Shown here: in pieces, positions 460 through 64,000 of the stretch | How the letters are laid out: every line of letters begins with the position of its first letter | Position numbering within the stretch: the first letter of the stretch is position 1 | Source of the DNA: a bacterium | GTDB lineage: Bacteria; Electryoneota; Electryoneia; Electryoneales; Electryoneaceae | DNA length: 64,000 nt | Reading direction: 5' to 3' | NCBI GenBank assembly: GCA_963669175.1 | Contig: OY769902.1 | Location: 512,001 to 576,000 of the forward strand | Program-made: the position numbers and the translations under genes | The notes under the pieces: model-generated | The model's database searches: none | What the model saw: only the letters and a program-made list of their open reading frames with translations | What the model was told of the DNA's origin: nothing

Positions 460-651
460 TTAACAGGATGATAGGATAGAAGGATATCAAGGATAACTGA
501 TTAAAAAATTTACAAGATGAATAAGATAGTAAGGACAATACTGTAAAATACTGTCAAACACCTTTTATACACGGTATTACATAAAATTCTTATCCTTTAG
601 TTATCCTATTATCCTAATATCCTGTTAAGATTTTTGCTTTGCGTGAAACAT
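460..651. repeat. Family A AGGAT/ATCCT repeat pair forming an inverted structure around an AT-rich core, followed by a partial family B repeat
   Basis: ttaacaggatgataggatagaaggatatcaaggataa at 460 and ttatcctattatcctaatatcctgttaa ending at 628; ctttgcgtgaaa follows. Confidence 0.9.
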
Positions 652-668
652 TTTTGAGGACAAAATAC

Positions 669-1601
669 ATGAGAGTATTCCTGACAGGCGGAAGCGGGTT
701 CTTCGGACGGGCGTTGTTGAAGCAATTCATCGACGGTGGTCATGAGGTCGCCGCGCCCCGTTCCAAAGAAGTGAACCTGCTGGACACAGCCCAGGTGGAC
801 GCCTCGGTGAAAGCGTTTGAGCCTGACTTGGTGGTTCACTCGGCCGCGTATTACGGCGGTATTGGCATCAACCAGGAAGAGCCGCACAACCTGTTTCACT
901 ACAACACGCTGATGATCGCCAATATCCTGCACGCTACGGGCGAGGCCGGGGTCAAGCGTTTCCAGGGCATCGGCAGCGCCTGCGCCTATCCCGCAAAGGT
1001 GGACGGCGACTTGCGTGAGGATGAATTCTGGGAAGGCGAATTGCATCCCAGCGTGGTAGGTTACGGCTTCTCCAAGAAACTGCTTCAGGTCGGAATGATC
1101 GCTCATGGCCGCAAGTTCGGGTTTACCTGGCAACTACCCACACTGACCAACCTGTATGGCGAGCATGATGTCTTCACCGAATACCGCAGTCATGTGGTTT
1201 CCGCGCTGATCAAGCGTTATGCCGACGCCACCCTGGAAGGTGCGCCCTACCTGATGAACTGGGGCACCGGCAGCCCGATCCGTGAATTCATGTATGTCCA
1301 TGACGCGGCAGCGGCATGCTACCGTCTGGCCATGACTGATGCGGAAGGTGTGGTCAACATCGGCACCGGGATCGGCACCACGATCAAGGAACTGGCGGAA
1401 TTGACCGCGGAACTGACCGGCTTCAAGGGCGAGGTTCGCTGGGATCCGACCAAGCCGGACGGTGTCGCTCGAAAAGTGTTGGATGTGACCAAAATGAAAA
1501 AGGTTCTCGACTGGGAACCGGAATATGATCTGCATTCCGGCCTGAAACGTACCATCGACTGGTACATGGCCAACAAAGAAGAAGCAGACGCCCGGAAGTA
1601 G
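669..1601 (+). CDS. GDP-L-fucose synthase-like NAD-dependent epimerase/reductase
   Basis: MRVFLTGGSGFFG Rossmann motif, GSACAYP, YGFSK, NLYG, WGTGSPIREF, KPDG; gagga SD before ATG 669. Confidence 0.85.
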   Translation: MRVFLTGGSGFFGRALLKQFIDGGHEVAAPRSKEVNLLDTAQVDASVKAFEPDLVVHSAAYYGGIGINQEEPHNLFHYNTLMIANILHATGEAGVKRFQGIGSACAYPAKVDGDLREDEFWEGELHPSVVGYGFSKKLLQVGMIAHGRKFGFTWQLPTLTNLYGEHDVFTEYRSHVVSALIKRYADATLEGAPYLMNWGTGSPIREFMYVHDAAAACYRLAMTDAEGVVNIGTGIGTTIKELAELTAELTGFKGEVRWDPTKPDGVARKVLDVTKMKKVLDWEPEYDLHSGLKRTIDWYMANKEEADARK

Positions 1602-1614
1602 AAAGAGGATTTTC

Positions 1615-5741: not shown

Positions 5742-6073
5742 TAGAATCCCGAAGGGATTCCCTATTTTAGCATAGTGTACAGGCCGTCAGTTTGGCCTGC
5801 ACACTATGTCAGAAATTTTAACTAATAAACAACCCTGTAAGGGTTGCATAATAATCGATTAAAACTTGTTCATTAAATAAGTTAGAACGTATTTGATATT
5901 TATAGACATCAATTGACCGTAAATGATGCTTTATGCAACCCACTTCGGGGTTGAAACGGTTTTGTTTCTCTACCCAGGGTGCGCGCTAAAAAGACAGCGC
6001 GTACCCTGGGCTAAAATAGCATACTCCTTCGGAGTATAGCTTTGTCAGCAGTCTGCATACTCCTTCGGAGTAT
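5742..6073. repeat. Family E REPIN-like multi-palindrome element (copy 1)
   Basis: aatcccgaagggattc, caaccc..gggttg pair, tactccttcggagta; homologous to 54218-54521. Confidence 0.85.
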
Positions 6074-11908: not shown

Positions 11909-11949
11909 CCCGACAGCAAGCAGTACGCCTCGGAGCACAAGTCGGGCCA
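11909..11949. repeat. Family F short palindrome (cccgacagcaagcagtcgggcca) carrying an 18-bp insertion
   Basis: Compared with uninterrupted copies near 34026, 57370, 29458 (rev) and 30224 (rev). Confidence 0.8.
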
Positions 11950-12009
11950 CATGTCTTTGTGTGTGTTTGTGTGTGTGTATCAGTATTCCAAGTTTTACTT
12001 ACGACACTA

Positions 12010-12178
12010 TTGGCCCCGTCCGGCTTGTCCGGCGGGGTTTATTTTAATTTAAATTAAAGAGTTAGTCCTTTAGTAGTCATGCGATGATAATCATGAACTC
12101 TCACACTATTTGATCAAAACCAAAGGTTGAACTCCTTCATTTAGAATAGACCACCGCCGGACAAGCCGGCGGGGCCAA
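12010..12178. repeat. Family D REP pair in inverted orientation around an AT-rich core
   Basis: ttggccccgtccggcttgtccggcgggg at 12010 and ccgccggacaagccggcggggccaa ending at 12178; single copies near 25156, 33950, 37708, 38155. Confidence 0.85.
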
Positions 12179-12480
12179 AAGGAAAATCTGTTCCTCACGG
12201 AAAATATTACCCCTGTCTTTCAACACAATCGTTGTTGTCACAACAACGTAAGCAATGTAATATCATATTGTTACAACACTTCTCGCTCATCCATATCCCC
12301 CACAAATACTGGCCCCGGGTTTGCTTTCATGAAGGTTGGAAGAACTGTACATCTGCGTAAAAGCTCAAGTGGTACATGAGTATTTCCTGATATTTCACCT
12401 CATGTACGAGTTTCAAGCTACCTCGTGTACAGGTTGATTACAGAAGACTTGCAGGCTGCACGGCAGCCGGGAAGACACTC

Positions 12481-14705: not shown

Positions 14706-15100
14706 TCCTGGATTCGCACAAGAATTCACAGGATGAACAGGATGGGTAAGGATACTCAGGATAACAGATTGATTTTAATGATAAAGTTTATTGACGATCT
14801 ATACGAATCCTAAACAATGAAAGCCTTTTTCTTTTCTTTGCGCCTTTGCGTCTTTGCGTGAAACTGAAGTTCTTCCTTGTAATCCTCCTGTAGTGCTCAT
14901 ACTTTTCTTAAACCTTTACCTGAAGTTGTCACACGGTTTGCTCCTGATTTTCATGGATGAGGATGGGGACTGGCAGAAGGTTGTCAGAGAACGGAAAATG
15001 GGGATTGACTCCTGTTGTTGTTCTCCCAGGATTCATCTGGACAGACGCAGGTCCAAAAACTGGCAAAAACTGGGGTCTGTCCCTATTTTCCCTATTTTCC
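14705..15100. repeat. Mosaic spacer: family A AGGAT run, family B (tttgcgcctttgcgtctttgcgtgaaa), family G ggggtctgtccc-type palindromes
   Basis: Direct comparison with the other spacers in the window. Confidence 0.75.
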
Positions 15101-18293: not shown

Positions 18294-18451
18294 GACCGGT
18301 TTCACGCAAAGACGCGAAACTGGCAATATTGCAGAAATGGGAAAAATATCTCACGCAAAGACGCAAAGAAAGGCAAAACCTTTGTAATGCTGTGTTGGGG
18401 CTTTTGAAGTAGTGCAGCCGGATTTTCAGAAACGGAAAAAGCATTTTTAGT

Positions 18452-18670
18452 GTTGTGTCAGGTCTTGGCACGCATAGCCAGTTGTGTCAGGTCTTGGCAC
18501 GCATAGCCAGTTGTGTCAGGTCTTGGCACGCATAGCCAGTTGTGTCAGGTCTTGGCACGCATAGCCAGTTGTGTCAGGTCTTGGCACGCATAGCCAGTTG
18601 TGTCAGGTCTTGGCACGCATAGCCAGTTGTGTCAGGTCTTGGCACGCGAAGCGGGTTGTGACCTGACACG
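18452..18670 (+). repeat. Tandem array of a 29-bp unit (gttgtgtcaggtcttggcacgcatagcca), 6 perfect copies plus a 7th that closes into a family C hairpin
   Basis: Units start at 18452, 18481, 18510, 18539, 18568, 18597, 18626; ends gtgacctgacacg. Confidence 0.95.
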
Positions 18671-19538: not shown

Positions 19539-19752
19539 GTCACAAGGGATTCACAAGATGTACAAGATAGCTAATGATAAACAGGATACGTGGTAGAATG
19601 TACAAGATGGGAAGGATAGTAAGGATACTAAGGATAAAAATATTATTAGGGTTAAAAGACAAAATGAAATTCTTAAATTATTTGTTTAATTAATATTATT
19701 TATTTGTTTTTCTTTTAATCTTTTCTTTGCGCCTTTGCGTCTTTGCGTGAAA
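19539..19752. repeat. Family A AGGAT run + AT-rich core + family B
   Basis: tacaagatgggaaggatagtaaggatactaaggataa; tttgcgcctttgcgtctttgcgtgaaa. Confidence 0.85.
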
Positions 19753-19802
19753 CAAATCAGTTCAAGTAGTTCAACGACAGACAACAGTTTTAAGGATTAG
19801 TT

Positions 19803-24508: not shown

Positions 24509-24589
24509 TACTCCCATTATTATGAATCCATCATATTTTCATGTGCTGTATCACTGAAATATCAAATGTATAGCTGTAAAAGGGATATG

Positions 24590-25363
24590 GAAAAAGGGGA
24601 CTGCCTCCTTTCCCTGGGATAAAGCCTTCCCGCTGTGAATATGGTCCGGGAAAGGTGGCTGTACCTTTTTTCTTGAGTGCAGGCAGGGATTACACGGAAA
24701 AGGGGACAGCTTCCTTTTCCACAAGTTCAGTAAGAATGTTTCGTGTCAGAGCGAGGAAAAGGATTCCGTCCCCTTTTCCCGGCAATTATCACTATAACGG
24801 AACAAAATTGAGAACTGGTATAAGTTCTTCTAACAAAGATTTGAAATATTACACTAGATGAACATTCCGAACGTCATATAACTGAGACAATCAAATTTTT
24901 CACGAAGAGTTGAAACATCAAACAACTCTGAAGGAGTTTGATAGGTGAGCCCAGTGTACGTGCCGTCTGTTTGGCACGTATCCTGGGTAGGAATCACCCC
25001 TTTTTACAACCCCGAAGGGGTTACATAAGAGCTTGATAATAATAAGGATCGAACTCCTATTATGAGTCAGAACTATCCCGTCAGGTCACACGCATGAAAA
25101 ACGTGTGCGCAAGACCTGACGGAACTTAAAAAGGACTGGATTCTCTATATCATTTAGAATAGACCACCGCCGGACAGCCGCTTCCGCTTCGCTTCAGCGT
25201 GCTTCAAGCCGGCGGGACCAAATGGACACTCACATGGAATCTCGAGATCCCCGGTCAGGCTCGGGGATGACATAGAATGGAGACTAGCTTCGCACTTTCA
25301 AGCCTGCGGGGCAAAAAGAGTTGTGTCAGGTCTTGCCGCGCGAAGCAAGGTGTGACCTGACAC
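24590..25363. repeat. Mosaic spacer: family G, partial family E, family C hairpins, family D with insertion, family H
   Basis: gaaaaggggacagc / ttccgtccccttttc; caaccccgaaggggtt; gtcaggtc..gacctgac at 25079 and 25320; gatccccggtcaggctcggggatgaca. Confidence 0.85.
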
Positions 25364-25428
25364 GATTGAAGAAAACCAGGTAGAGTTAAAGAAAACTGGG
25401 TAGAGCAGCAACAAGGCAGGGAGAGAAC

Positions 25429-27709: not shown

Positions 27710-27983
27710 GACTCACAGGATCACTTTGACTCACAGGATATTAGGATGATAGGATATAAAGGATAACTACTTATTAAACGTAAAGAACTAATGGGATAAT
27801 AACTGTTTGTATTTACAGGATGGGTAGGATACTAAGGATAGCAAGGATAAAACCTTTTTGAACATTGATTAAAAACTTCTTTGATTTTGTATTACCAAAA
27901 TGTTGTATTTTCATCCTTCAGTTATCCTATTATCCTAATATCCTGTTAAGCTTTCTTTGCGCCTTTGCGTCTTTGCGTGAAAC
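27710..27983. repeat. Family A inverted pair + family B
   Basis: acaggatattaggatgataggat near 27733 versus atcctattatcctaatatcctgt near 27924-27946. Confidence 0.88.
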
Positions 27984-28011
27984 AAGTCGTTTGATTCTTC
28001 ATGAGGGAGTT

Positions 28012-29358
28012 ATGCCGAAGAACCGCATGATAGAAGAGCTGAAACAGTTGCATCCCCTGCGTTGGGCGCCGGTATCACCGGAGACCGATAAGGGCGTTGA
28101 GCTGCTGAAAACGATGCTCGATTTCGAGGTGTTTGAATACGCATCCGGGGCTGAGGTCAACGGTTGGGTTGTCCCTCAAAGCTGGTACCCGGTCAAGGCC
28201 GAAATCCGTAAGGATGGCGAGCTCATCTATGACGGCATGCGGCACCCCTTGGGCGTGATTGGCTATTCCTCCAGTTTCCAGGGCAAGGTCAGCCTCGAAG
28301 AACTCAAGCAGCATCTGTTTTCCCGTCCTGCACGTCCCAATGCGCTGGTCTATCATTTCCGTCTCTATTACCGTAACGCCTGGGACAGCAACTGGGGTTT
28401 CTCCATGCCCTGGAACCAGGTGCAGACTTTGCCCGAAGGCGAGTACGAGGTCGACCTGCAGACAGTCCACGAACCCGGCACCATGAAAGTCCTCGAAGCC
28501 ACACTGCCCGGCGAAACCACCGACACCATCGCCCTGACCGCGCATAACTGCCACGCCGCACAATCCAATGATGACCTGGTCGGGGTGGTCGCAGGTATGG
28601 AGATCATGCGACACCTGGCCGAGCTGCCCAAGCGACGTTACACGTACCGTCTGATCATCGGTGCGGAACATTTCGGGCCGGTATTTTACCTGGCGAATCG
28701 AGACAGGAACGTGCTGGATACTTTCCGTGGCAACATCTTCCTCGAAGTCCTGGGGCATCAGAACCGTCTCGCCCTACAACGCAGTTTCAATGGCGATACG
28801 ATCCTTGACCGGGCTGCGGAACATGTCCTGAAACATCGTGACCCGCGTGCCTATGTAGGCGATTTCCGTAAAGTGATCGGCAATGACGAGGTGGCCTGGG
28901 AAGCGCCCGGTTACGAGATCCCGACCATCCTGTTAACCCGTGCCGAACCGATGCCCCTGACCAGTGAAGGCGTGCTCCATTTCCCGGAATACCATACCTC
29001 CATGGACAATCCAGACATCATCCAACCGGAGATGCTGGAGGATGCAGTCGAGGCTACACTTGCTATTCTTGACGTGCTCGAGACCAATACGGCGATGGAG
29101 CGCAAGTTTGACGGACTGGTCGCTTTATCCAACCCGACATACGACCTGTATATCAACACGCTGGACGCCTCCAAAGGGGAAGCTCTGCCGGAAGTGCAGT
29201 TCGAATGGTTCAACCTGATGGATCGTCTGCCACGCTATCTGGACGGCTCCATGACCATTCTCGATATCGCCCTGAAACACGATCTGCCCTATGATCAGGT
29301 GAAAGAATATATCCTTCGATGGGAGGAGAAAAAGCTGCTTCAAAGAATTAAGAATTAA
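28012..29358 (+). CDS. DUF4910-like aminopeptidase-fold polysaccharide biosynthesis protein
   Basis: GWVVP, YY...WGF, AHNCH, ND..VG, NDE, PEYHTS.D, C-terminal DG..TILDIA; gggag SD. Confidence 0.8.
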   Translation: MPKNRMIEELKQLHPLRWAPVSPETDKGVELLKTMLDFEVFEYASGAEVNGWVVPQSWYPVKAEIRKDGELIYDGMRHPLGVIGYSSSFQGKVSLEELKQHLFSRPARPNALVYHFRLYYRNAWDSNWGFSMPWNQVQTLPEGEYEVDLQTVHEPGTMKVLEATLPGETTDTIALTAHNCHAAQSNDDLVGVVAGMEIMRHLAELPKRRYTYRLIIGAEHFGPVFYLANRDRNVLDTFRGNIFLEVLGHQNRLALQRSFNGDTILDRAAEHVLKHRDPRAYVGDFRKVIGNDEVAWEAPGYEIPTILLTRAEPMPLTSEGVLHFPEYHTSMDNPDIIQPEMLEDAVEATLAILDVLETNTAMERKFDGLVALSNPTYDLYINTLDASKGEALPEVQFEWFNLMDRLPRYLDGSMTILDIALKHDLPYDQVKEYILRWEEKKLLQRIKN

Positions 29359-29372
29359 AAATTAAGAATTAA
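29343..29372 (+). repeat. Heptamer run (aagaatt)x4 overlapping the DUF4910 stop codon
   Basis: aagaattaagaattaaaaattaagaattaa; related reverse run taattcc at 54880-54941. Confidence 0.75.
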
Positions 29373-29532
29373 TGGTTCACTGGTTTGAATCCTCTGTTTG
29401 TCAAGTTTGAGTCAGCCTGACTGGAGTTGTAGGACGAGGCGTATTGCACAGACCGTTTGGCCCGACTGCTTGCTGTCGGGTTTCGAGTCTTTCACTTTTT
29501 TTCACTGTCTACTTTTTTCACTTTTTTCTTTG

Positions 29533-29958: not shown

Positions 29959-30271
29959 TTTCACTCCCCGGTTCGCGTTGTTGACCACTTTTAAATAGTA
30001 GTGCGAAATACTTCAAAAAACAATATTATCCTTTCAGTAATTCTCTGTTTCACTGTAGGATAGATGTGACTCGGTCACAAGTTTTTTGAAGAGGATTCTG
30101 TCTTGTTGGGCAACCACTGCGTGGTTGAAAAGAGGTATCCGATTCTCTCACAGGGGCGTGCCAAACTGACGACCCGACCCTGTGCTGTGTTCGGTAGTCC
30201 CTGCGGGATTATGACAGCTCGTGTGGCCCGACTGCTTGCTGTCGGGTTTCGAGTCTTTCACTTTTTGGTTC

Positions 30272-33922: not shown

Positions 33923-33949
33923 AAGCGCACATAAGAGATTTGCACTTTA

Positions 33950-34325
33950 TTGGCCTCGCCCGGCTTGTCCGGCGGGGTCTATATTAATTTATTTCAAGAG
34001 GTTAGTCCACTTGTTTTATTGGTATCCCGACAGCAAGCAGTCGGGCCATGCACTTCTGTGTAGAACTGGTAGAAACGTGCAGGATTATTTCGTCAAGAGC
34101 GTTATTCCACTCCCATTCGGGTGGCCCGATTCGCAAGTGGTTGATTTTCAACATCTGATGCAGCCAGAATACTCCCATACATACAAATTTTATCGCTTCA
34201 CTTTGAGCGCATCGGGACTGAGCAGAAGACACAGGCAAAAGGGGACAGTCACCTTTTCGACTATTTTCATCACTCAATAGCACACTTTTACGCGACGAAA
34301 AGGAAACAGTCCCCTTTTGCTGCAT
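33950..34325. repeat. Mosaic spacer: family D, family F short, 92-bp element (reverse, 34125-34216), family G
   Basis: Direct matches to copies in 37609-38314. Confidence 0.8.
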
Positions 34326-36355: not shown

Positions 36356-37045
36356 TGGATTCACAAGATGTACAGGATGGTGAAGGATTGACAGGATTGA
36401 TTGTTCATGGACTTACAGGATGATAGGACAAGAATGGTAAGGATGAGGTTAGTTGAATGTACAGGATATGAAGGATGGTAAGGATATAAAGGATAAAAAC
36501 GCTTTTTATGACAAGGGGCATGATAACGACACATTTTCTGTTATCAAACAATGCTGACTAAAGCAACACGTTCTTTACCGTTTATACATATTTGCGTCTT
36601 AGCGTCTTTGCGTGAGACATGCTTTTAAGAATTGTTATTGAAATAGTTTTAGGGACACTGGCATAGTCCCCCTCCTGATAATCGCCCTTCTGTTCGTCAC
36701 AGAAGGGCGGTTCTCGTTATTTGTCCCACAGGATAATAGGCTACAAGGATGTCAAGGATGAGTTTTGTTGAATGTACAGGATGATCAGGATAGCAAGGAT
36801 TTTAAGGATAAGCTGTTCTAACTACTATTTTATAATAACCTTGCAACTTCCAAACTTATTCAAGGTTGTGTGGCCCGGTGTGCTTGCACCCGGGGTTCTG
36901 TTGATTGTACAGAATGGAAAGGACAATAAGCTTGCTAATCCCCCACCAGGCATGGTCAGGCTACCTTCCACCTTCTTTACGTTTTTTACCTTCTTTGCTT
37001 TTTTCACCTTTTTCACCTTTTCCACTGCCCACTTTTTTCACTTTG
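36356..37045. repeat. Mosaic spacer: two family A AGGAT runs, family B, gcccggtgtgcttgcacccggg palindrome, ttttttcac runs
   Basis: Repeats visible directly; reverse counterpart at 39381-39443. Confidence 0.8.
36681..36712. terminator. GC-rich hairpin downstream of the cytochrome gene
   Basis: cgcccttctgt-tcgtc-acagaagggcg. Confidence 0.55.
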
Positions 37046-37107
37046 CGAGCCACTTTACTTCCCCGTTTTTCCCTGCTATGTTCTGCCCAACAAAAGGAGA
37101 ACGATTC

Positions 37108-37554: not shown

Positions 37555-37608
37555 GGATGGTGAAGTGTCAGCACAGAATATTGGATAGAGTGTAAAGCTA
37601 CTTCTCCT

Positions 37609-38314
37609 GCAAATGGGTACAGTCACCTTTTCGATCACATGCATCTCTCAATAACACACCTCTGCGCCACGAAAAGGAAACAGTCCCCATTTGCTGCATG
37701 TTTTTACTTGGCCCCGTCCGGCTTGTCCGGCGGGGTTTATTTTAATTTATTCAAGAGGTTAATCCATCTATTGTTGTCCACACGAAAAGGGGACGGAATC
37801 CTTTTCCTATGAGCACACCCGGACACTTTTGCTATGCTTGCGGAAAAGGAAGCTGTACCCTTTTCGCAGTGATGAACCCTGATTGTTCGCGCATCTTTTC
37901 GCAGTAGTCAAGCTTGGGAGTGTATTCATCACCCGACCTGCTCCTCCAGCGCATCACAGGTTCAATATCCGCTAACGTAGCCATCACTGAAGGAATATCA
38001 ATCTTAACGAGCGGCAAGTCGGGCCATACGGGCGAGTGGATGCAGCGAGCTCACTGGCAAATGGGTACAGTCACCTTTTCGATCACATGCATCTCTCAAT
38101 AACACACCTCTGCGCGACGAAAAGAAACAGTCCCCATTTGCTGCATGTTTTTACTTGGCCCCGTCCGGCTTGTCCGGCGGGGTTTATTTTAATTTATTCA
38201 AGAGGTTAATCCATCTATTGTTGTCCACACGAAAAGGGGACGGAATCCTTTTCCTATCAGCACACCCGGACACTTGTGCTATGCTTGCGGAAAAGGAAGC
38301 TGTACCCTTTTCGC
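37609..38314 (+). repeat. ~259-bp near-identical direct repeat (37609-37867 and 38057-38314), itself made of families G+D+G, flanking a 92-bp element
   Basis: The two copies differ at only a few positions. Confidence 0.92.
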
Positions 38315-39368: not shown

Positions 39369-39380
39369 AGTGATAAAGCA

Positions 39381-39606
39381 GGCAGTGAAAAAGGTGAAAA
39401 AAGTAAAGAAGACAGATACCCGGGTGCAAGCACGCCGGGCCACGCGCCTTTATCATAAAAAACAGTCTTTTATCATTGATATCTTTACCATCCTGTAAAT
39501 TCAATAAGAAATCTCACCTTTGACATCCTTCTATCCTATCATCCTGTGAGACTATTCGTTTTCTTCATCCTGTTCATCTTTTCCTATCCTGTAAATCCTG
39601 TGAATC
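39381..39606. repeat. gtgaaaaa runs, cccgggtgcaagcacgccgggcc palindrome, family A in ATCCT orientation
   Basis: Direct comparison with 36869-37045 and 44344-44433. Confidence 0.8.
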
Positions 39607-39672
39607 CCTGCTGCGTTGACGAGTATCAGGTTGTATCTTGCACCTGACCATTCGACAACAACGAGCCCCTTC

Positions 39673-40590
39673 ATGTCCACGCCCACACCTGACCCGAATC
39701 CCCTGCACCGCTGGCGGGCGTTTCTGCTTTCCCTGGTGGAGATGACGTTGCTGGCTGTCGGGTTTGGCGCGTTGGCGTTGACACGCTCTCTCGATATCGT
39801 ATCCGCATTTTCCTATAGCATCAACCTGGCGTTGGGCTTGTTGTTTGTCGCGATACTGAAGATCTGGTTGACGCTCCTGGCCGGACGTGTGCTGTTTCGT
39901 TCCGATGTCGCTGCTTTGCTCGGCGCAGCCCTGATTGGGGCTTATGCCGCGGCCGGGAATGAACTGGTCACGCTTGGCGAGCTTCATGTCGGGGTGCCGA
40001 TCCTGGTGCTGGTGTTGGGAACCGGAATCGCCTTTTTTCAATGGAGCCGCCAGCAGCCGGAACTAAACCGTGTACGAGTCTGGACACTCACCGTTGGGTT
40101 GTTTTTCTTCTGGCTGATCATGGGCGTATGGATTACCCGGGAATTATTGTCCACGCCGATCAATCTTCCGGTCACCTTGCACACGCCGGGTTTGTTACTG
40201 GAATGGTTTGCGCTGCTTCTGGCCGGGCGCAGTCTCGCGGCCTGGTTGGCGGAAGGTGGTGTGTACAGCCGTTGGAGCAGTTTCCTGCTGCTATTGGGCG
40301 CAGGACCGTCACTCCCGGTCATGTACCTGCTGGCGCACCTGTTGTTTGCCCTGAAAGAACGGTTGAGATCCATTGGAAACGGCTGGTTGTTGCGCGGGTT
40401 GTACATCCTTTCCACTCTGACCGGAATGTGGTTGTTTTATGTGCATCAGCATATCTGGGGATATGTATATGCGTTCCTGTTCCTGTTGTGCGCGGTGGTA
40501 GTGCTGGTTATCAGGAAACGGCTGCTGCGAGTGGTTGCGGGGTCGCTGCTGGCGCTCGGCTTCGCGGTACTGATGGAAATCATCCGCTGA
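39673..40590 (+). CDS. Hypothetical polytopic membrane protein
   Basis: Many Leu-rich hydrophobic segments; no recognised motif. Confidence 0.65.
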   Translation: MSTPTPDPNPLHRWRAFLLSLVEMTLLAVGFGALALTRSLDIVSAFSYSINLALGLLFVAILKIWLTLLAGRVLFRSDVAALLGAALIGAYAAAGNELVTLGELHVGVPILVLVLGTGIAFFQWSRQQPELNRVRVWTLTVGLFFFWLIMGVWITRELLSTPINLPVTLHTPGLLLEWFALLLAGRSLAAWLAEGGVYSRWSSFLLLLGAGPSLPVMYLLAHLLFALKERLRSIGNGWLLRGLYILSTLTGMWLFYVHQHIWGYVYAFLFLLCAVVVLVIRKRLLRVVAGSLLALGFAVLMEIIR

Positions 40591-40598
40591 TTTGTCTT

Positions 40599-40870
40599 GA
40601 CTCACAGGATATTAGGATAGAAGGATAGAAGGATAGCAAGGATGAACTGATTTATTTACAAGATTTAAATGATAGATAAGGATGATCAGGATAAGATTGA
40701 CTGAATTTACAGGATGGAAAGGATTGTATGGATAAAATATTGATAATTTTAATGATAAAATCATGACCGGGACATAATTTTCAATATTCAAACAATGCCA
40801 ACTATTTCAGAACTTTGTTTACCTTCTTTCCGTTTTTTCTTTCTTTGCGCCTTTGCGTCTTTGCGTGAGA
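40599..40870. repeat. Family A AGGAT run + AT-rich core + family B
   Basis: ctcacaggatattaggatagaaggatagaaggatagcaaggatg; tttgcgcctttgcgtctttgcgtgaga. Confidence 0.88.
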
Positions 40871-40964
40871 TATCATCTATTCAGTGCTGGCAATTCTTCC
40901 TCAGGTTTGATGCTTATCTTCAGACCCGTATATTGGCTCAATCGTTCACCAGACGGGGCATCTC

Positions 40965-43628: not shown

Positions 43629-43944
43629 TGAAGTGCTTTGCCTAAAAAACATAACTACTTGTTTCACGCAAAGACGCAAAGGCGCTAAGAAGTAAAAAAA
43701 GCAAAGAAGGTAAAAAAGGTAAAGAAAGTAACTGGTGCGCCAACCGGTGTATGATTGACCAGGCTTTCTCTACTATCCTACATATACGCCATTTCACCGG
43801 AAAAACAAAAAACTTGTTTCACGCAAAGCCCCCCGACTACAGCATTCGGGAGCAGGCTACAAGACGCAAAGAAAGAAAAAGAAAAGAAGGTAAAAATTGA
43901 AGAAAGTAAAATAGTGGTCATAAATAGAGTTATCGTAAAGAGAA

Positions 43945-43980: not shown

Positions 43981-43991
43981 ATTTACGGTTG

Positions 43992-44314
43992 CTCACAAGA
44001 ATTTGTGCATATTATCGACGAGCACGTTTCGTCAGGTCTTGACGTGATGCCTTTTTCTTGTTTTTCTCAGTAATTTCAGACATCTGTCCGACTTCACACC
44101 TGCTATTTCGCATGATAGATCGTCATCAGGCATCACGTTGTGACCTGACGACAGCGAGAGTGCTGATACAGGTGGCAGGTCACAACGCGACAAGTACAGT
44201 ACGAGAGGTGGTTTCAGTATCATCTTGTATTCGGGAAAACATCGCGAAAGCCGAAAACGGAATGTCGCGTCAAGACCTGCCACAACTTTGCCCGGATGCA
44301 CAAATTCTTGTGAG
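43992..44314 (-). mobile_element. 322-bp MITE-like element, copy 2 (inverted)
   Basis: 19-bp TIR ctcacaagaatttgtgcat / atgcacaaattcttgtgag; reverse complement of 46930-47251. Confidence 0.78.
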
Positions 44315-44450
44315 AAACCATATTTACAAATATAAAAATGTCGTTATCCTTTACATCCTTACCATCCTTTTCATCCTGTAAATTCAATAATTCCTTATCC
44401 TTGATATCCTTCTATCCTATTATCCTGTGAGTCAGATCCTGCGAGTCCCA

Positions 44451-46550: not shown

Positions 46551-46611
46551 GAAAGAGAGCCCGTTTATGCTCTTTAGTTTGAACGGCCTACGGAGTAGAT
46601 CCCCGCCTGCC

Positions 46612-46830
46612 AGACTGTATCAGAATAGAAAACACTCTCATCCCAGCGAAGGCTAGGATCCAGGCAAATATCGACAAAATAACAACTTGGACACTTGAAC
46701 GGCTCTCAATGTACCGTGTATCTTGACAACACTTAACCTCTTGTAATATCGCAACCTGACTGGATCCCAGCCTTCGCTGGGATGAGAGCATCAGTGATTC
46801 TGAGACACCTTGCTGCGCTGGGGATGACAT
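46612..46830 (+). repeat. Family H REPIN-like element (ctcatccc..ggatcc arms)
   Basis: Inverted homolog at 49581-49826 including the core. Confidence 0.82.
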
Positions 46831-46929
46831 GCTAGGACACTTTCCAGAAATCAGTCCAGATCTTTTAGCATTGAAAGCCTTTTCATCCTTGATATCCTTA
46901 TCATCCTGTATTTCTAATAAAAATGGTTC

Positions 46930-47251
46930 CTCACAAGAATTTGTGCATCCGGGCAAAGTTGTGGCAGGTCTTGACGCGACTTTCCGTTTTCGGCTTTCGC
47001 GATGTTTTCCCGAATACACGATGATACTTAAACCACCTCTCGTCCTGTTATTGTCGCGTTGTGACCTGCCACCGGTATCAGCTCTCTCGCTGTCGTCAGG
47101 TCACAATGTGATGCCTGAGACGATCTATCATGCGAAATAGCAGCTGTGAAGTCGGACAGGTGTCTGAAATTGCGGAGAAGAACAAGAAAAAGGCATCACG
47201 TCAAGACCTGACGAAACGTGCTCGTCGATAATATGCACAAATTCTTGTGAG
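46930..47251 (+). mobile_element. 322-bp MITE-like element, copy 3
   Basis: Perfect 19-bp TIRs; no ORF with a transposase motif. Confidence 0.78.
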
Positions 47252-47264
47252 CAGCCATAAAAAA

Positions 47265-47572
47265 TTCATCTTTGATATCCTTCTATCCTATTATCCTGTT
47301 AGGTAAAATCCCGACTTGCTTTCGAGAGTAGCGTAACGTGCAAGATTTCATTCATAGCATTCTTTGTTTGGCGTGGCAGATCATCACAGGCAAATCGGGC
47401 CATACCTCGCGTCCAGTTATCAAGTTGCAAAGTTGCAAAGTTAATTAAATGAAAATCGTAATCACATCCGTCATTTTCCTTGATTCACATCCTGTACATC
47501 TGTAATTATCTTGTCAATCCTGTAAATAAATCAGTTCATCCTTGATATCCTTTTATCCTATCATCCTGTGAG
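47265..47572. repeat. Family A runs (AGGAT on minus strand), 92-bp-family element (47310-47399), aagttgc heptamers
   Basis: Direct comparison. Confidence 0.8.
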
Positions 47573-47589
47573 GCAATATTCTGTGGGGG

Positions 47590-49446: not shown

Positions 49447-49580
49447 TCGGAAGAACTCTGTTGGATGAGATTCAATTGATGATCCCTGACTGTTATTCTA
49501 TATCAAAACAGGCGACACTCTCGTCCCAGTGTTTGCTGGCTCTATCGGAATCACCGAGCTCTCATCTCAGTAAAGCATAC

Positions 49581-49826
49581 TGTCTCAGAATCACTGATGC
49601 TCTCATCCCGGCGAACCGAAGCGAAGCGTAGCATGCGGTGTGCGAAGCAATGCCGTGAACAAAGGCTGGGATCCAGTCATATTGCGATATTACAAGAAGT
49701 TAAGAATTCTCAAGAGACGCTGTGCATTGAGAGCTGTTTGTGCGCGCAACTTTTTGTATTGTCGATACTTGCCTGGATCCCCACCTGCGTGGGGATGAAA
49801 GTGTAGCCGATTCTGATATAGCCCGG
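49581..49826 (-). repeat. Family H REPIN-like element, inverted copy with an extra insertion
   Basis: Reverse complement aligns with 46612-46807. Confidence 0.8.
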
Positions 49827-50039
49827 AAGGTTTGGATGAAAAAGTAGCAATCCCATTTTTCGCCGCCATTCTCTCATCCTTACACAATCTGCTGCGCAGG
49901 GACGCGGGCCATAAGAATGGCTACTTCCTGTAGCACGTTGCCTTATTGACAACCTGTCTCAATACGACCTTCTGCCTGTTGCCCCACGTGCAGGATTGCG
50001 TATCTTTCAGGATTCAGGCAAGGATACAACAGGTGTGTC

Positions 50040-53920: not shown

Positions 53921-54217
53921 TTCGGTTGTTACAAAGTTATCACGTTTGAAAGTTGAAAAGTATTCTGGGTCTCGACAGAAATGTCCCGTTCTGTCATCCC
54001 TAAGGCAGAGCCTGTCCCCGAAAAATTGAAACCCTACAGTGATCCCTGCCTGAACGGGGAGTCGGGCCACTCGCCCATCCACTTCTGTCTTCCACTTAAA
54101 AGCGATTTCCACCCACCCCGATGGGGTGGAACACGAATAGCGCGGGGTGTAAACCCTGTCTCTTACCCACATCTTCTGAAAGCTGTATCAGTAAAAGAGT
54201 TGTGGACATAGCATTTT

Positions 54218-54521
54218 TAGAATCCCGGCGGGATTCCCTATTTTAGCATAGTGTACAGGCCGTCTGTTTGGCCTGTACACTATGTCAGGTATTCTAACGA
54301 ATAATCAACCCTGGAAGGGTTGCATAATACGCGATTCATATTAGTACGTTCAATAAATACAGGAAATAACGCATTTTATATTCTATACAAACCAATTGGG
54401 TGTAAATTATACGTTATGCAACCCTTCCAGGGTTGAGATAAGGTTTGATCTTTTTCGTAGGGTAGACGCTAAACAGACAGCGTCAACCCTACGCTAAAAT
54501 ATACCACCCCCTCTGGGGTGG
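54218..54521. repeat. Family E REPIN-like element (copy 2), embedded in further palindromes (54109-54735)
   Basis: Arms near-identical to 5742-6037, core diverged. Confidence 0.85.
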
Positions 54522-54946
54522 CAGAAACACGAAGATGTGAGCAAGAGACAGGGTGTAAACCCCGGGAGAACAGTCACCGTCCCCCTCCCACGATCCCGAA
54601 GGGATCGCACAACATTTTGGGAATAGGTGGTTTATTCATGTGAGTCCCCTTCGGGGACAGGTCATGGGTGAAACATCCTATTCCCCGGCACTTACGTACC
54701 GCGCTATTCAAGTGGTTCACCTTCGGTGAACTGGATTTGTCCGTAGTTCTGGATTACAATCCGATACAGCTTGTGCGATGAGAGAACAAAGTGCGGTTGG
54801 GTGGATCAAAATAGTGGACGAATCACATGAATCGATGGATACTGATCTGCGCATCATCGTTCAGGACAAAGCGCATCCCTAATTCCTAATTCCTAATTGG
54901 CAACCTGTCAATTCCTAATTCCTCATTCTTAATTTCTAATTGACAC

Positions 54947-57276: not shown

Positions 57277-57600
57277 GGATTCACAAGGATGAACAGGATA
57301 TGAAGGATGGAAAGGATAAAAATTTTCAGGGGTGATTATGTCGACTATTATACAACAGTCCAACCGAAACCCGACAGCAAGCAGTCGGGCCACGCGTCAA
57401 ATGGATACTCACATTGAATTATAGGATCCCCGGTCAATACACCTCAGCATACAAGGCCGGGGATGACATGGGAACTGGGGTGAGGATGACATGGGATATG
57501 GCGCTAACGATGATAGAATGGGACATTACACTATATCACTGCTTATATCACTACCAACTTTCTTTTTTTCACTTTTTTCACTGTCAACTTTTTTCACTTA
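57277..57600. repeat. Mosaic spacer: family A, family F short, family H with insertion, ttttttcac runs
   Basis: Direct comparison. Confidence 0.8.
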
Positions 57601-57641
57601 ACAAACAAAAACCCCTGATGCCATATTTCAGGACCAGGGGC
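57601..57641 (-). terminator. Probable intrinsic terminator of secD-secF
   Basis: Minus strand cccctg...cagggg then tttttgtttgt. Confidence 0.65.
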
Positions 57642-60811: not shown

Positions 60812-61030
60812 CCTGTTATTACGGAACTTCGAAATATAGGGGCGGAACCTATTGGAGTCAATAAAAATAACCCAATGGCTCTGCTTGAGCGCCGTTTATG
60901 AATAATCTGCTTGGCTACATGGCTACTCTACGTGAGCGCAACGGTATCCTACCTACACTTGTCTTGAGTGCAGTTGCATCCCCGGCTACCATTTTTCACG
61001 GACAGCTTTTTACATTATGGAAGAACAATA

Positions 61031-61565
61031 ACTTTGGAACTTTCCAACTTTTCAACTTTCAAACTTATTTACAGGATGAACAGGATGGGAAAGGATAATC
61101 AGGATAATAATACGGATAGTAAAAACTATTGTGCTGTCTGATGTGTTGTTTCTTTTTTCACTTTTTTCATTGCCTACTTTTTTCACTTTTTCATGTCCTC
61201 CCCAACCTACATGTCATCCCCAACCTACATGTCATCCCCGGCCTACATGTCATCCCCGGCCTACATGTCATCCCCGGCTTGAACGGGGATCTCGAGGTTC
61301 AACGCACCAATCTTCCCCGCTTCGCCATCCGCTCCCGACTTGCTCAGCGAATGCAGCGCAGTGGAAAGTGTGCCATACAGCACCGTTACTGCAAGAGCGT
61401 TCACCTGCACACCCGGCAAATCGGGCCATGCGTTTTCTGTTGCTTTTTTCACCTTTTTCACTGCCTACTTTTTTCACTTCTTCAAATCATTCCCGGCCAG
61501 GCATGGCCGGGCTGCCTTTCTTTACCTTTTTTACTTTTTCTACCTTCTTTACTTCTTCCTTCTAA
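61031..61565. repeat. Mosaic spacer: heptamers, family A, ttttttcac runs, 18-bp tandem array closing into a family H hairpin (61192-61293), 92-bp element (61334-61425)
   Basis: catgtcatcccc(aa/gg)ccta x4 then gtcatccccggcttgaacggggatc. Confidence 0.88.
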
Positions 61566-61647
61566 GTCTTTTTTTTCGAGGGATGCGAACAATTTGCATT
61601 CAACAGATTGAATGACTAATTTGAAAAGCCGAGCATATGGAGAGACT

Positions 61648-64000
61648 ATGAAACAAATGAACCGCAGGTATTTTTGTAAGCAGTATGTCGTTCAAGCGCT
61701 TAGGAACACCCACACACAGTTCAGATGGCATTGCTTTCCCCGCCTTTTCTATCTGATGCCAGCCCTCGTGTTGTCAGTTTGTACCCAACTCCGGGAGGCT
61801 CTCGTGAGTATGCTGGAAAGTTCAAGATTCCCGACTTGCTCATCAAATGCAGCGCAGATAGAAGTGCAGGGAACATCGCTGCTATCGCGAGAGCGTCCAC
61901 CTTCACAACCGGCAAATCGGGCCATGCGTTTTTCTGTTTCTTTTTTCACCTTTTTCACTTTGCTTACTTTTTTCACTTCGAGTTTAGCGGAGACATTTGT
62001 TTCCGGCGAAGTTTCCGGCGTGTGGAACGTGGAGGGCTCGCCTTACCTCGTCACCGACACGTTGACTGTCCCCGAAGGGGATACCCTTCGGGTTGAACCC
62101 GGTGTCACTATCACCTTTCTGGATCAGACCGACAGCACACGCACTCCTTTCATCGTGGAGGGGACATTACTAGCGTTGGGCACGGAGGGCGACTCCATTC
62201 GTTTTACCTCACCGGAATGTGGCTTTTTCGGCATCTATGTTCCCTTTGAGCAGTATAACGCCACTATCCACATGGAATATTGTGTGATTGATTCGGCCTA
62301 TAATGGTATTTGGTCCAACAACTGTCATACTGTAGTTAAACATTGCTGTTTTACTGTGGGCTATTGGCCTGTCACCGTGACGAATGGCAATGTTCGGGTG
62401 GAATACTGCACCTTTTTCAAGAGTGCCGGTGGAAACACGAATCTCACGCATGCGGTTTTTTCTTCGGGCGATTCTGTATCCATTCATGATGTGTATGCGC
62501 CTACGACACGAATTCAAATCGGTTCCTGCGGGTTTGTGGATACGGTCTTCAATATCATTGCAGATCAGCTCAATATGAATTTCAGTGCGGCAGAAATCAA
62601 ACAAACTGAGGTGAAGTACATTCATTTATCGAGTGGCAGCTACCATATGTATGATCTGGGCGAGGAAAGTTACCCGGCAGTGCGTTTTTATCGGGCTGAC
62701 ATTCTTGCAGAAGATTGCCACTTGTCCAACGTGATTTTGTCCGAAAGCAGCGGTGTTATTCGTAACAATGAAATCAACGGTGCATCCGTAAGTTTTCGCG
62801 GAGTGCTTGACTTGAACACCTCTTCAGATGTGGACATCTACAACAACATTTTCAATGGAACTGTAACAGCCATATCGATTGGGACGACGGACAATGTAGC
62901 CATTTGGAACAATACTCTTCTATTCGGCTCCAACGGCATTTACCAGACCAGCAGCACGAATATCTCTGTCTGGAACAACATCTTTCAGGGTGATGGGGTA
63001 AGCTGTACCGGCATCAATTGTCTGACTGAAGCGCCGCCAGAAGAGATTCATTACAATACTTTTCATAACCTTTCTCAAGTCACCAACGGTTTTGAGCTGG
63101 ACGAAACCAATCTGGTTACCGATCCCTTCCTTGCTGGCGGTGATCCTTTCGACTACCACTTGCAGGCCAACAGCCCGTGCATTGACGCCGGTGATCCGGA
63201 AAGTCCGGACGATCCCGACGGCACCCGTGCCGATATCGGCTGCTTCTATTACGACCAATCCTTAGACAACCCTCCAGTCCAAACCATCCCCGAAGAAGTC
63301 TTCGCGCAGACCGGACAACTGCTCCGTATTCAGATTATCGCAATCGACGACAACGGCCCCTTCAGCTTCACGTTACCGGACCTTCCGGACTGGCTGACCG
63401 AAGAGGACGAACTGGATTGGGTCAGTGATACGACCGTGGTATCGGGAACCGTGCCCGAAGATGCGGAGGACTTCAGCTTCACGGTGATTGTGGAGGATGG
63501 TGAAGGGCAGACGGATACCTCCCTTGTCACGGTGGATGTTGACCAGCGTAACCTGTTATATGGTGAGATCAGCGGTGTTTTGCATGTTGAGGACAGCCCG
63601 TTCTACGTAGTCGAGGATATTGTCGTCCCCGAAGGTGACAGCCTGGTCATCGAACCGGGATGTGAATTGCAGTTCAGATATGTGGAGGATGAAGAGCAGA
63701 GGATCCGGGTTTACTGTAATGGTTCTCTTATCTGTGAGGGTGTGGAAGGAGACAGTGTTTTTCTGAGAGGAAGCATACAAGATTTGGAATCGGAACAATG
63801 GAGTGGGATAGAACTGACAACGACTTCCAATGCGAACATTGCATACACTAGATTTGAAAATGCCGCAATTGCTATACAAACTAGTGAGGAATGTGATATA
63901 CATGTAGCAAATACATTGTTTTCCAGAAACAATCATTCTATAGTAGCAATAAATGACAGTACTATAACAATTAACTTATGTAGTTTTAGAGCAACAAACA
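61648..64000 (+). CDS. Large secreted parallel beta-helix repeat protein with Ig/cadherin-like domain, 3' truncated by window; start at 61648 or 61924
   Basis: Manual translation finds no stop from 61612 to the window end; GEVSGVW..EGSPY.V...L.VP.G..L..EPG module twice, NN-rich beta-helix turns, DYHLQANSPCIDAGDP..DGTRADIG, LPDWL; absent from the ORF track because no stop lies in the window. Confidence 0.88.
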   Translation, partial: MKQMNRRYFCKQYVVQALRNTHTQFRWHCFPRLFYLMPALVLSVCTQLREALVSMLESSRFPTCSSNAAQIEVQGTSLLSRERPPSQPANRAMRFSVSFFTFFTLLTFFTSSLAETFVSGEVSGVWNVEGSPYLVTDTLTVPEGDTLRVEPGVTITFLDQTDSTRTPFIVEGTLLALGTEGDSIRFTSPECGFFGIYVPFEQYNATIHMEYCVIDSAYNGIWSNNCHTVVKHCCFTVGYWPVTVTNGNVRVEYCTFFKSAGGNTNLTHAVFSSGDSVSIHDVYAPTTRIQIGSCGFVDTVFNIIADQLNMNFSAAEIKQTEVKYIHLSSGSYHMYDLGEESYPAVRFYRADILAEDCHLSNVILSESSGVIRNNEINGASVSFRGVLDLNTSSDVDIYNNIFNGTVTAISIGTTDNVAIWNNTLLFGSNGIYQTSSTNISVWNNIFQGDGVSCTGINCLTEAPPEEIHYNTFHNLSQVTNGFELDETNLVTDPFLAGGDPFDYHLQANSPCIDAGDPESPDDPDGTRADIGCFYYDQSLDNPPVQTIPEEVFAQTGQLLRIQIIAIDDNGPFSFTLPDLPDWLTEEDELDWVSDTTVVSGTVPEDAEDFSFTVIVEDGEGQTDTSLVTVDVDQRNLLYGEISGVLHVEDSPFYVVEDIVVPEGDSLVIEPGCELQFRYVEDEEQRIRVYCNGSLICEGVEGDSVFLRGSIQDLESEQWSGIELTTTSNANIAYTRFENAAIAIQTSEECDIHVANTLFSRNNHSIVAINDSTITINLCSFRATN

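Follow-up and report, generated by a model that had tools for sequence, protein, structure and literature searches.

The repeats nearest in kind to those analysed here belong to a few described types of dispersed element. Bacterial interspersed mosaic elements (BIMEs) are clusters of repetitive extragenic palindromes (REPs) and of their REPIN forms, and the short tandemly repeated repetitive (STRR) heptamers of filamentous cyanobacteria, which have been used for fingerprinting, are intergenic tandem heptamers in many dispersed arrays, to which no function has been assigned. Recognition in trans of a protein's own repeat has been published for the REP-associated tyrosine transposases (RAYT; PMC3116915) and for the Ssn single-strand nucleases (PMC11893778); the latter paper (Nat Commun 2025) describes the Neisseria transformation sequence (NTS) and Ssn-related motifs (SRMs), and the layout that it gives for ssnA is a small GIY-YIG gene between SRMs. 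The intervening sequence (IVS) in the 23S rRNA of Coxiella burnetii is regarded (PMC4990558) as a selfish element whose arms form an RNase III substrate. Here we compare with these systems the repeat families that occupy the spacers of a 64,000-nt stretch of a chromosome from the Electryoneaceae (G000:C1:512001-576000; hereafter, the window). The genome, G000, is a single contig of 5.45 Mb with 50% G+C. Positions of up to five digits refer below to the window, and longer ones to the genome.

Our reading, to which we give a probability of about 0.7, is that the spacers of the window serve as a dumping ground in which gene-less members of at least four systems have collected, each system consisting of a small gene with its own inverted repeats, and that the gene copies lie elsewhere. 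Two of these system classes are published (REP/RAYT and SRM/Ssn), and two were not found in print, namely a GxxExxY gene with phased words and a four-helix-bundle gene with heptamers or nonamers.

The genes of the window were mapped by Pfam searches on 52 open reading frames (ORFs) with NCBIfam additions, and the Pfam-supported ORFs define the genic bases. When the window was compared with its own genome by blastn, 6618 of the 13411 intergenic bases had at least three other genomic copies, versus 1253 of the 50589 genic bases; repeat elements make up about half of the intergenic DNA. A repeat search detected at least 60 direct-repeat families. Among the 22 spacers of at least 50 nt, at least one of ten marker families is present in 21, at least two in 16 and at least three in 6, and repeated bases account for at least 20% of 21 of them. 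Length-matched genic controls, scored with loose regular expressions, contained at least one family in 82 of 440 and at least two in 6 of 440. An earlier sequence-only reading of this stretch had described the spacers as a mosaic of about ten recurring families, and these counts bear it out. The families are not confined to the window: copies covering at least 70% of the window reference number 120 for F, 87 for H, 70 for T, 67 for C2, 48 for B and 48 for D2 in the whole genome. The mean copy identities are 99.3% (F), 97.9% (D), 97.5% (H) and 97.2% (B), and the A arms are about 90% identical. By density of 14-mers present at least five times, the 64-kb bin of the window ranks 15th of 86 (4.86% versus a median of 2.97%); the window is repeat-rich, but not extreme. 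The repeat map was built on 14-mers, a 12-mer map being too noisy. Tandem Repeats Finder (TRF) was used for unit tallies only, since a very permissive run was swamped by coding periodicity.

The families named by that reading are real, but their form had to be revised. A, B and T are arrays of phased words and not plain motifs. The distance from one AGGAT to the next is 9 nt in 440 cases and 8 nt in 207, versus 8–57 cases for any other distance between 5 and 30 nt, and the scrambled control word AGAGT reached at most 19 at any spacing. TTGCG peaks at a spacing of 8 nt (95 cases), and TTTCAC at 9 nt (76) and 16 nt (67). The period of B is 8, not 9. Several families are moreover parts of composites, such as a 345-nt double C doublet, an E mosaic of 3+3 hairpins, and B-H and A-B units.

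The sequence-only reading had also noted that no cognate mobilising gene lies in the window, and the searches agree. No transposase or small nuclease was found among the 52 window ORFs with Pfam and NCBIfam, and whole-genome family searches gave no match inside 512001-576000 to Y1, GxxExxY, PF05635 or small GIY-YIG proteins. All members of these families lie outside: ten matches to Y1_Tnp (PF01797), three PF05635 four-helix-bundle genes, one GxxExxY gene (TIGR04256), and two small GIY-YIG genes plus one GIY-YIG match in a 647-aa ORF. We linked the repeat families to genes by reading the flanks of these genes and intersecting them with the matches between window and genome. The families had been called orphans; nearly every one of them proved to be tied to a gene elsewhere in the genome, and B to genes in relatives. 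The gene families proposed as partners held for GxxExxY, four-helix-bundle, GIY-YIG and Y1/RAYT proteins. DUF559 dropped out, because the genome has no small gene of this family and the single match, of 22 bits, lies inside a 1987-aa open frame. A flank screen started from blocks of 14-mers present at least five times, of which the genome has roughly 2975, and ranked 156 ORFs lying between such blocks by inverted flank similarity. Seven Y1 genes, the small GIY-YIG gene 2717995-2718276, the GxxExxY gene and a pair of PF05635 genes were among its top 11; apart from these, the top held only a window gene that simply happens to have an A element on either side. The unbiased screen yielded the same gene list as the targeted searches. 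The genome-wide ORF map behind the flank and spacer statistics is crude.

Most of the palindromic families belong with the Y1 genes. The Y1 ORFs encode 143–260 aa and stand alone, neighbouring TnpB not having been searched for; the proteins at 2242304 and 5087366, the only two run against NF047646 (REP_Tyr_transpos), passed its cut-off of 80 with 83 and 89.3 bits, respectively. C flanks the Y1 gene 5087366-5087854 on both sides (89–91% identity), F flanks the RAYT gene 2242304-2242858 on both sides (91–100%), and an F2 pair flanks the Y1 gene 4081897-4082460. The E-type sets of three hairpins are both present at the Y1 gene 5013752-5014207, and on one side only at 2672106-2672561. C, E, F, F2 and G, and D weakly, thus flank Y1/RAYT-type genes and are ordinary REP/REPIN-type repeats, so the label 'non-RAYT' does not apply to them. 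They behave as the REP/REPINs described by Bertels & Rainey 2011 (PMC3116915). The likeness covers short palindromes and inverted doublets in extragenic positions (doublets are seen for D at 12002-12181, G, C2 and E), copy numbers from tens to about 120, one gene per family flanked by its own repeats, and several families per genome whose repeats cluster into mosaics. Most copies lie outside the crude ORFs (94 of the 120 F copies, for instance), though only about 15% of the genome does so. Within the family, F occurs 121 times in G000, 25 times in G003, 11 times in G009 and 3 times in G001. The hairpin is identical at 22 of 22 positions in G003, in at least 11 exact copies, while the shared genes are only about 67% identical. 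In G009, a variant (CTGCGTGCAG) is altered at two positions towards the middle of the hairpin. Unlike REP/REPINs, A, B, T and the heptamers are arrays of phased 5–7-nt words and not single palindromes; their genes encode a PD-(D/E)XK nuclease or a four-helix bundle instead of an HUH-Y1 protein, and lie inside operons.

H had been put forward as part of an undescribed system, but it fits the published Ssn/SRM system (PMC11893778). Its expected place beside GIY-YIG genes was found: the GIY-YIG gene 2717995-2718276 is flanked by H hairpins and half-site arrays 78–97% identical to the H elements of the window. The second such gene, 4649975-4650292, has on both sides an element of about 250 nt that is 84–97% identical to the window copies. 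The two proteins have 93 and 105 aa and match PF01541 with 4e-16 and 1e-15. As in the published system, a small single-domain GIY-YIG gene lies between oriented hairpins that are also dispersed, and H (..GTCATCCCCGGCTTGAACGGGGATCTCGAG) and CTCATCCCTGCGAAGGCAGGGATCCAGG fit, by eye, the NTS/SRM patterns of that paper. The differences are that H here also forms long outer half-site arrays with an 18-nt period, and that the second family is a two-hairpin element of about 250 nt. With C, E, F, F2 and G being REP/REPIN-like and H Ssn-like, about half of the supposedly orphan, non-RAYT families are ordinary.

The only GxxExxY/PDDEXK_3 gene of the genome (3093208-3093603) lies between nuoH and nuoI and is bracketed by CTCACAGGATATTAGGATAAAAGGATATCAAGGAT and its inverse. 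These arms are 87–96% identical to the A arms of the window. The protein matches TIGR04256 with 142 bits (cut-off 35) and PF13366 with 1e-40, and the residues G29, E32, Y35, D71, E81 and K83 are invariant in 58 GxxExxY sequences. An AlphaFold model (pLDDT 93) has a PD-(D/E)XK fold, and its nearest structures are Cas4 SSO0001 (E = 1.6e-5, TM-score 0.55–0.60), MGME1 and lambda exonuclease. The model gives only a hint that the protein may be akin to enzymes working on single-stranded DNA or DNA ends; a search of the PDB with its sequence gave no match at E values up to 1. The genome contains 196 A arrays. Of the 93 left arms, 38 are paired with a right arm no more than 700 nt away, and the loop between the two has a median length of 109 nt. 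The proposal that A and B are found beside GxxExxY genes was confirmed, in that A arms bracket the gene here and B arms bracket such genes in relatives.

The same arrangement extends across the phylum. TIGR04256 is present in 36 of 79 genomes, and nearly all of about 66 GxxExxY genes whose flanks were read have phased words on both sides, with different words in different lineages (AGGAT, CAGAG, CGAAG/CAAAG, CGGAT, CGGAA, CGAAA, CAGAT, GCAGAT and GCAAAG). Of the 58 cassettes with both flanks, 38 have own arms whose similarity exceeds the 95th percentile for mismatched pairs. When 60 GxxExxY proteins were placed on a tree, 23 changes sufficed for the word label, versus 39–47 in 300 shuffles, with labels set by eye and with relatedness inflating the clustering, and 48 changes were needed for the genome label, versus 47–54. 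Protein and word therefore travel together, largely independently of the host. Triple AGGAT arrays number 296 in G000, 198 in G001 and 71 in G003; eight more genomes have 45, 27, 23, 22, 19, 16, 9 and 6, and the remaining 68 of the 79 have 0–4 (control at most 2), including every checked genome with cassettes of other words. AGGAT arrays are abundant only in genomes with AGGAT-type cassettes. The closest relatives of the protein in other phyla include those of Verrucomicrobiota, Planctomycetota, Lentisphaerae, Hydrogenedentota, Chloroflexota and a Nostoc, and ACAGGAT-type words flank about half of 36 such loci, as judged by eye.

The nuoH–nuoI junction was compared in 16 genomes of the family, and presence/absence polymorphism was found at this orthologous site. 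Six genomes carry the gene with AGGAT or AAGAT arms (the copy in G003 has an in-frame TAA), four (G005, G015, G013 and G014) carry gene-less hairpins of other words, three of them in tandem in G015, and the spacer is free of arrays in six, with a length of 37–76 nt in five and 131 nt in one. The gene-less hairpin in G005 has the word CGGAT, which is that of the GxxExxY cassette of the same genome elsewhere. For the window spacers, a clean pair of filled and empty sites was not obtained from the comparison with G001, which belongs to the same genus: the secDF and glycosyltransferase genes are 70–78% identical, the contigs stop at repeats, and the spacer upstream of secD has a G-type hairpin in place of the G000 arrays.

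B is a family without its gene in this genome. The exact 18-mer of B occurs 41 times in G000, 8 times in G001, 39 times in G003, 8 times in G022 and 3 times in G024, and is absent from 26 other genomes; the reversed control gave no occurrence. In G024, a GxxExxY gene of 125 aa lies between the B arms TCTCACGCAAAGACGCAAAG... and ...CTTTGCGTCTTTGCGTGA, and B-flanked GxxExxY genes also occur in G003 (twice), G022 and G051. The deepest split of the tree separates the B clade (support 98) from the AGGAT clade, which contains the only gene of this genome. A tblastn search of the genome with 61 GxxExxY proteins found one place only, of the AGGAT clade, and a cognate B-clade gene was not found in G000 despite its 41 exact 18-mers. 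Left and right B arms also form a cluster of pairs around AT-rich loops of about 150 nt between paralogous genes (G000:C1:1515817-1526185), where one arm has at least eight TTTGCGCC words.

The T arrays and the heptamers are found, as the sequence-only reading had expected, beside four-helix-bundle genes, and T, T2 and AAGAATT arrays bracket the three PF05635 genes of the genome. T2 and T arrays lie on either side of the genes at 896733 and 899082. The flanks of the latter (899082-899447) are up to 100% identical to the T arms of the window, and those of the former 87–94% identical to T2. The third gene (5095661-5096047) has AAGAATT heptamers on both sides that are 97–100% identical to 29345-29373. 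All three sit between protein-coding genes. The gene at 896733 (G000:C1:896733-897098) has an in-frame TGA at codon 17, yet the best score of the three (131.8 bits). PF05635 is present in 61 of the 79 phylum genomes; almost all of 30 loci that were read are bracketed by inverted tandem heptamers whose unit differs by lineage, and in 20 of 27 loci with both flanks the own arms match above the 95th percentile of mismatched pairs. In two other families of the phylum, cassettes lie at apparently one orthologous junction (G048, G018, G019, G046 and G047), where the DNA upstream and downstream is similar across loci and the heptamer differs in each; this suggests long residence, with both arms changing in step.

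Two described systems resemble these cassettes. The IVS of C. burnetii shares the protein family (PF05635/TIGR02436, S23p) and the small ORF enclosed by complementary arms, as in the 20 of 27 phylum cassettes. However, the cassettes described here lie between protein-coding genes, none within a 23S rRNA gene, and their arms are tandem heptamers or nonamers, with gene-less arrays dispersed in dozens of copies. The cyanobacterial STRRs are likewise tandem intergenic heptamers in many dispersed arrays; here, inverted matching arrays are tied to PF05635 genes. In the literature we found no published link of GxxExxY or four-helix-bundle genes to repeats, only incidental mentions.

In the mechanism that we propose, C (with C2), E, F, F2, G and probably D would be hairpins or doublets of the ten Y1 (IS200/RAYT-type) genes that lie between such repeats, each family flanking one or two of them. 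H and the ~250-nt CTCATCCC..GGGATCC element would be the SRMs of the two small GIY-YIG (Ssn-type) genes. A would be the arm of the single nuclease cassette between nuoH and nuoI, and B the arm of a different lineage that relatives carry and that is lacking here, while the TTTTTTCAC nonamers and the AT-rich heptamers would be arms of the three PF05635 cassettes. Each protein would recognise its own repeat in trans, as published for RAYT and Ssn and as inferred here for the GxxExxY and four-helix-bundle proteins. Copies would persist where they are harmless, directly after stop codons and between operon genes. By nesting or fusing they would form composites, and the copying of whole composites would give rise to the mosaic. 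The activity of the elements and the role of the two uncharacterised protein types are likewise inferred.

Some results weigh against this reading. We saw no transposition intermediate and no insertion polymorphism within a species, the nearest genome being 70–82% identical in its genes. The sequencing runs listed as containing the region are two DNA runs of a single study, and no RNA run is among them. G shares only the core ACCTTTTC ... GAAAAGGNANCNGTNCC with both flanks of the Y1 gene 3618158-3618820, and D is linked only loosely to a Y1 gene, by four cores within 1.5 kb of 4919199-4919765. F and RAYT do not track each other: the best RAYT relative in G003 is only 46% identical to the F-flanked protein, and none above 49% was found across the family. 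The 61 GxxExxY proteins detected no gene remnant by tblastn in the gene-less A and B copies, which are therefore not recent deletion derivatives, and 48 B arms at 97.2% identity in a genome without a B gene fit poorly with strict dependence on a cognate protein. Functional tests of GxxExxY or four-helix-bundle proteins were not found in the literature.

An alternative that we consider improbable is that the arrays and hairpins are RNA or DNA signals that serve the host, such as processing stems, stabilisers, terminators or protein-binding arrays, with the small genes as passengers. It would account for the orientation of the B arms: outside ORFs, 34 of 40 copies point the same way as the gene upstream of them. 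Of 183 outer ends of A arms, 127 face a stop codon, and 38 of these 127 lie within 25 nt of it, versus an expected share of 0.09; cassettes fit exactly from the stop of one gene to the ribosome site of the next. RNase III is also described (PMC4990558) as excising the 23S rRNA IVS that has the same (PF05635) protein family. A test for an RNA stem showed no excess of sense-strand G.U pairs: the arm mismatches in 63 cassettes comprise 72 sense-strand G.U, 85 of the antisense kind and 193 transversions. The spacers between the words differ even between the two arms of one cassette, while the words are conserved. The words, not the pairing, therefore look conserved, and recognition of DNA words by a protein is weakly favoured by the sequences over an RNA stem. 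Moreover, the words follow the protein lineage instead of the host, and the nuoH–nuoI spacer is empty in close relatives. It is also unlikely, in our estimation, that the families are inert fossils of past invasions that cluster because few spacers are tolerant, with nothing acting now. Such decay would agree with a single GxxExxY gene for 196 A arrays and none for B, with the in-frame TGA of one PF05635 gene and the in-frame TAA at the junction in G003, with A arms only about 90% alike and with a modest excess of co-occurrence. The very high mean identities of F, D, H and B, a copy of an element of about 400 nt that is 100% identical, insertions nested within other young-looking elements and the invariant catalytic residues of the GxxExxY proteins all speak against this.

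The idea that the systems specifically recognise and insert into each other's repeats, a stronger form of the sequence-only reading, seems to us quite unlikely, although nesting does occur. Besides its identical copy at 1502570-1502969, the ~400-nt element at 54154-54553 has further copies, which sit within a C2 copy and within a G doublet. An F2 doublet is likewise enclosed by a G doublet, and the loops of D and of the GIY-YIG-type hairpin carry insertions. A B arm (43814-43879) is split by a 33-nt F-like hairpin, as read directly from the sequence, and heptamer and T2 arrays lie inside A hairpins near 5305200-5306400. Among 54 B-pattern matches, A arrays lie up to about 110 nt upstream in 12 and an H hairpin about 35 nt downstream in 13, as counted by eye, a few of the 54 being in coding sequence and several being tandem or duplicate copies. 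At least two families are present in 84 spacers, where a null model weighted by length gave a mean of 58 and, over 500 redraws, no more than 74; for at least three families, the count is 23 versus a null mean of 7.3 (maximum 14). However, no recurrent insertion point within a host repeat was found among the nested elements, the interiors of elements are the only neutral DNA nearby, and the null model rests on the crude ORF map. Several B-H units are duplicates of one composite and therefore not independent events. A 447-nt tandem duplication of a composite of G2 doublet, D hairpin and G doublet (37673-37867 and 38120-38314; 195 nt at 98%) indicates that composites are copied as units. Tolerant spacers together with such copying explain the co-occurrence equally well as targeting.

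Beyond the dumping-ground reading, it is possible, at somewhat less than even odds, that GxxExxY genes with 8–9-nt words and four-helix-bundle genes with heptamers or nonamers are two undescribed self-recognising classes parallel to REP/RAYT and SRM/Ssn. Their arms would be modular, and B would thrive genus-wide without its own gene, its copies being 97% uniform, aligned with the direction of transcription and in many cases joined to A arms or to SRM hairpins. If so, arms would be serviced across systems or would move as hybrid composites, and mosaic spacers would be a product of interacting systems instead of passive accumulation. PF13366/TIGR04256 and PF05635/TIGR02436, which are very large families of unknown function, gain a concrete and testable context, and so do the arrays of phased nonamers and of tandem heptamers found in many genomes. 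All four ways of coupling a repeat to a protein occur together in one complete chromosome, where the cognate pairs are clear, and B is a natural orphan family in which it can be tested whether such repeats require their own protein.

The individual A and B elements of the window are given here with the strand in brackets where one is assigned. The gene-less A hairpin at 457..629 has a left arm (457-496) that consists of CTTAACAGGAT and three more AGGAT words, a second, degenerate arm (508-541) and a right arm (590-629); as single-stranded DNA it folds with -21.3 kcal/mol (z = -4.05), the arms pairing word by word. Inside the glycan operon, an A left arm (14724-14764) is followed by a B right arm (14826-14864; unit 14724..14864, +). 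Two A left arms (19549-19589 and 19598-19640) precede a B right arm (19715-19755) in 19549..19755 (+). In 27725..27989, A left arms (27725-27773 and 27811-27853) are followed by an A right arm (27909-27950) that abuts a B right arm (27951-27989), and the left flank of the GxxExxY gene shares 91% identity with 27730-27764. The unit 36359..36811 (+) has A left arms at 36359-36399, 36457-36508 and 36723-36811 and a B right arm at 36591-36625. A right arms (ATCCT words) at 39472..39607 (-) have a T-type left arm immediately upstream (39380-39411). In 40596..40873 (+), A left arms (40596-40651, 40654-40694 and 40705-40738) precede a T2/B right arm (40821-40873), and the GxxExxY left flank shares 96% identity with 40601-40627. 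Between the last two sites lies an ORF of 324 aa (39616-40590) that has no Pfam or NCBIfam match and ranked 4th in the flank screen. It is preceded by an A right arm and followed by an A left arm, an inside-out order that is also seen around GxxExxY genes of G003. Further A right arms lie at 44335..44436 (-), with 94% identity to a GxxExxY flank, and around a C2 element in 46878..47577 (-), at 46878-46910, 47260-47307 and 47480-47577. A heptamer run of the AACTTTC type (61024-61066) passes into an A left arm (61067-61107) in 61024..61107 (+). Two reverse-oriented B arms (TCACGCAAAGACGC...) occupy 18296..18375 (-), and in 43653..43879 (-) a B + T2 arm (43653-43731) is followed by the split B arm.

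Among the palindromic families, C forms a tandem array of seven 29-nt copies at 18452..18670 (+), in which the unit is the left half of the C hairpin plus its loop. The array ends with one complete hairpin (18625-18669), which shares 89% identity with each flank of the Y1 gene at 5087366. Two C hairpins (25078-25127 and 25319-25364) in 25078..25364 enclose a long-loop D hairpin (25131-25225) and an H hairpin. C2 (30261..30605, +) is 345 nt long and consists of two nested C-type doublets with terminal inverted repeats; it has 67 copies genome-wide, including 43982-44326 (-) and 46917-47255 (+). In the E element at 5742..6036, a set of three hairpins is followed by an AT-rich centre and then by the inverted set, and its left set agrees in order and linkers with the 5' flank of the Y1 gene 2672106-2672561. 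A D doublet (12002-12074 and 12136-12181) lies at 12002..12181, with other D copies at 33948-34016, 37706-37766 and 38153-38213. The F hairpin GGCCCGACTGCTTGCTGTCGGG (29451..29485; 120 copies, 99.3% mean identity) recurs at 11909-11949, 30216-30251, 34022-34052 and 57365-57398, and F2 (GGGTGGCCCGATTCGCAAGTG ... GAGCGCATCGGGAC) lies at 34118..34230 with a related copy at 61329-61576. G hairpin doublets (GGAAAAGGGGAC..CCTTTTCC) are found at 24519..24823, and G2 copies at 34232-34326, 37606-37700 and 38054-38148. An E-type set of 3+3 hairpins lies inside the ~400-nt element in 54114..54613. The ~400-nt element itself has terminal inverted repeats of about 19 nt (CTGTCTCTTACCCACATC... / ...GATGTGAGCAAGAGACAG) and an apparent flanking direct repeat, GGTGTAAACC; its left end occurs 39 times in the genome, and we take its ends to resemble those of the IS4/Tn5 type.

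T arms (TTTTTTCAC words) occur at 29490..29528 (+), 94–97% identical to the flanks of the PF05635 gene 899082-899447, at 57564..57602 (+), where 57564-57599 is 100% identical to the upstream flank of that gene, and in 61147..61976 (+), at 61147-61193, 61438-61494 and 61930-61976. A T2 + T arm (36969..37044, +) matches the flanks of both PF05635 genes near 897–899 kb. The AAGAATT heptamer array at 29343..29373, which flanks the PF05635 gene at 5095661, has 36 copies genome-wide. The AATTCCT array (AATTAGG on the other strand) at 54868..54942 belongs to 43 arrays counted by TRF, and in this genome no gene flanked by exactly this unit was found. H is represented at 61192..61300 (+) by an array of 18-nt half-sites (CATGTCATCCCC...) that ends in the full hairpin GTCATCCCCGGCTTGAACGGGGATC and is 83–97% identical to the flanks of the GIY-YIG gene 2717995-2718276. 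The half-site part of this array (61192-61281) is built like the 29-nt half-hairpin array of C at 18452-18670. An H/SRM hairpin lies at 25245..25275 (-), and another with half-sites at 57425..57496 (-). The ~250-nt element, with NTS-like hairpins at its bounds (CTCATCCC..GGGATCCAGG / TGGATCCC..GGGATGAGAG), is found at 46579..46829 (+) and again at 49548..49879 (-), where one hairpin loop has a 46-nt insertion.

The genes of the window include a long sugar operon that encodes epimerases, a DegT-type aminotransferase, a PseG-like protein, NeuB, a WbuX-like amidotransferase, HisH/HisF-like proteins, and methyl- and sulfotransferases. A multihaem cytochrome, DcuC, DeaD, SecD, SecF and several glycosyltransferases are encoded elsewhere in it. 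The repeat elements break the assemblies of relatives and generate spurious ORFs. T arms, H half-site arrays and an F2 doublet make up almost all of an ORF of 160 aa (61129-61611), which matched no family and is unlikely to be a gene. In the ORFs 27865-29358 and 36772-37554, the called start likewise extends into A/B arms.

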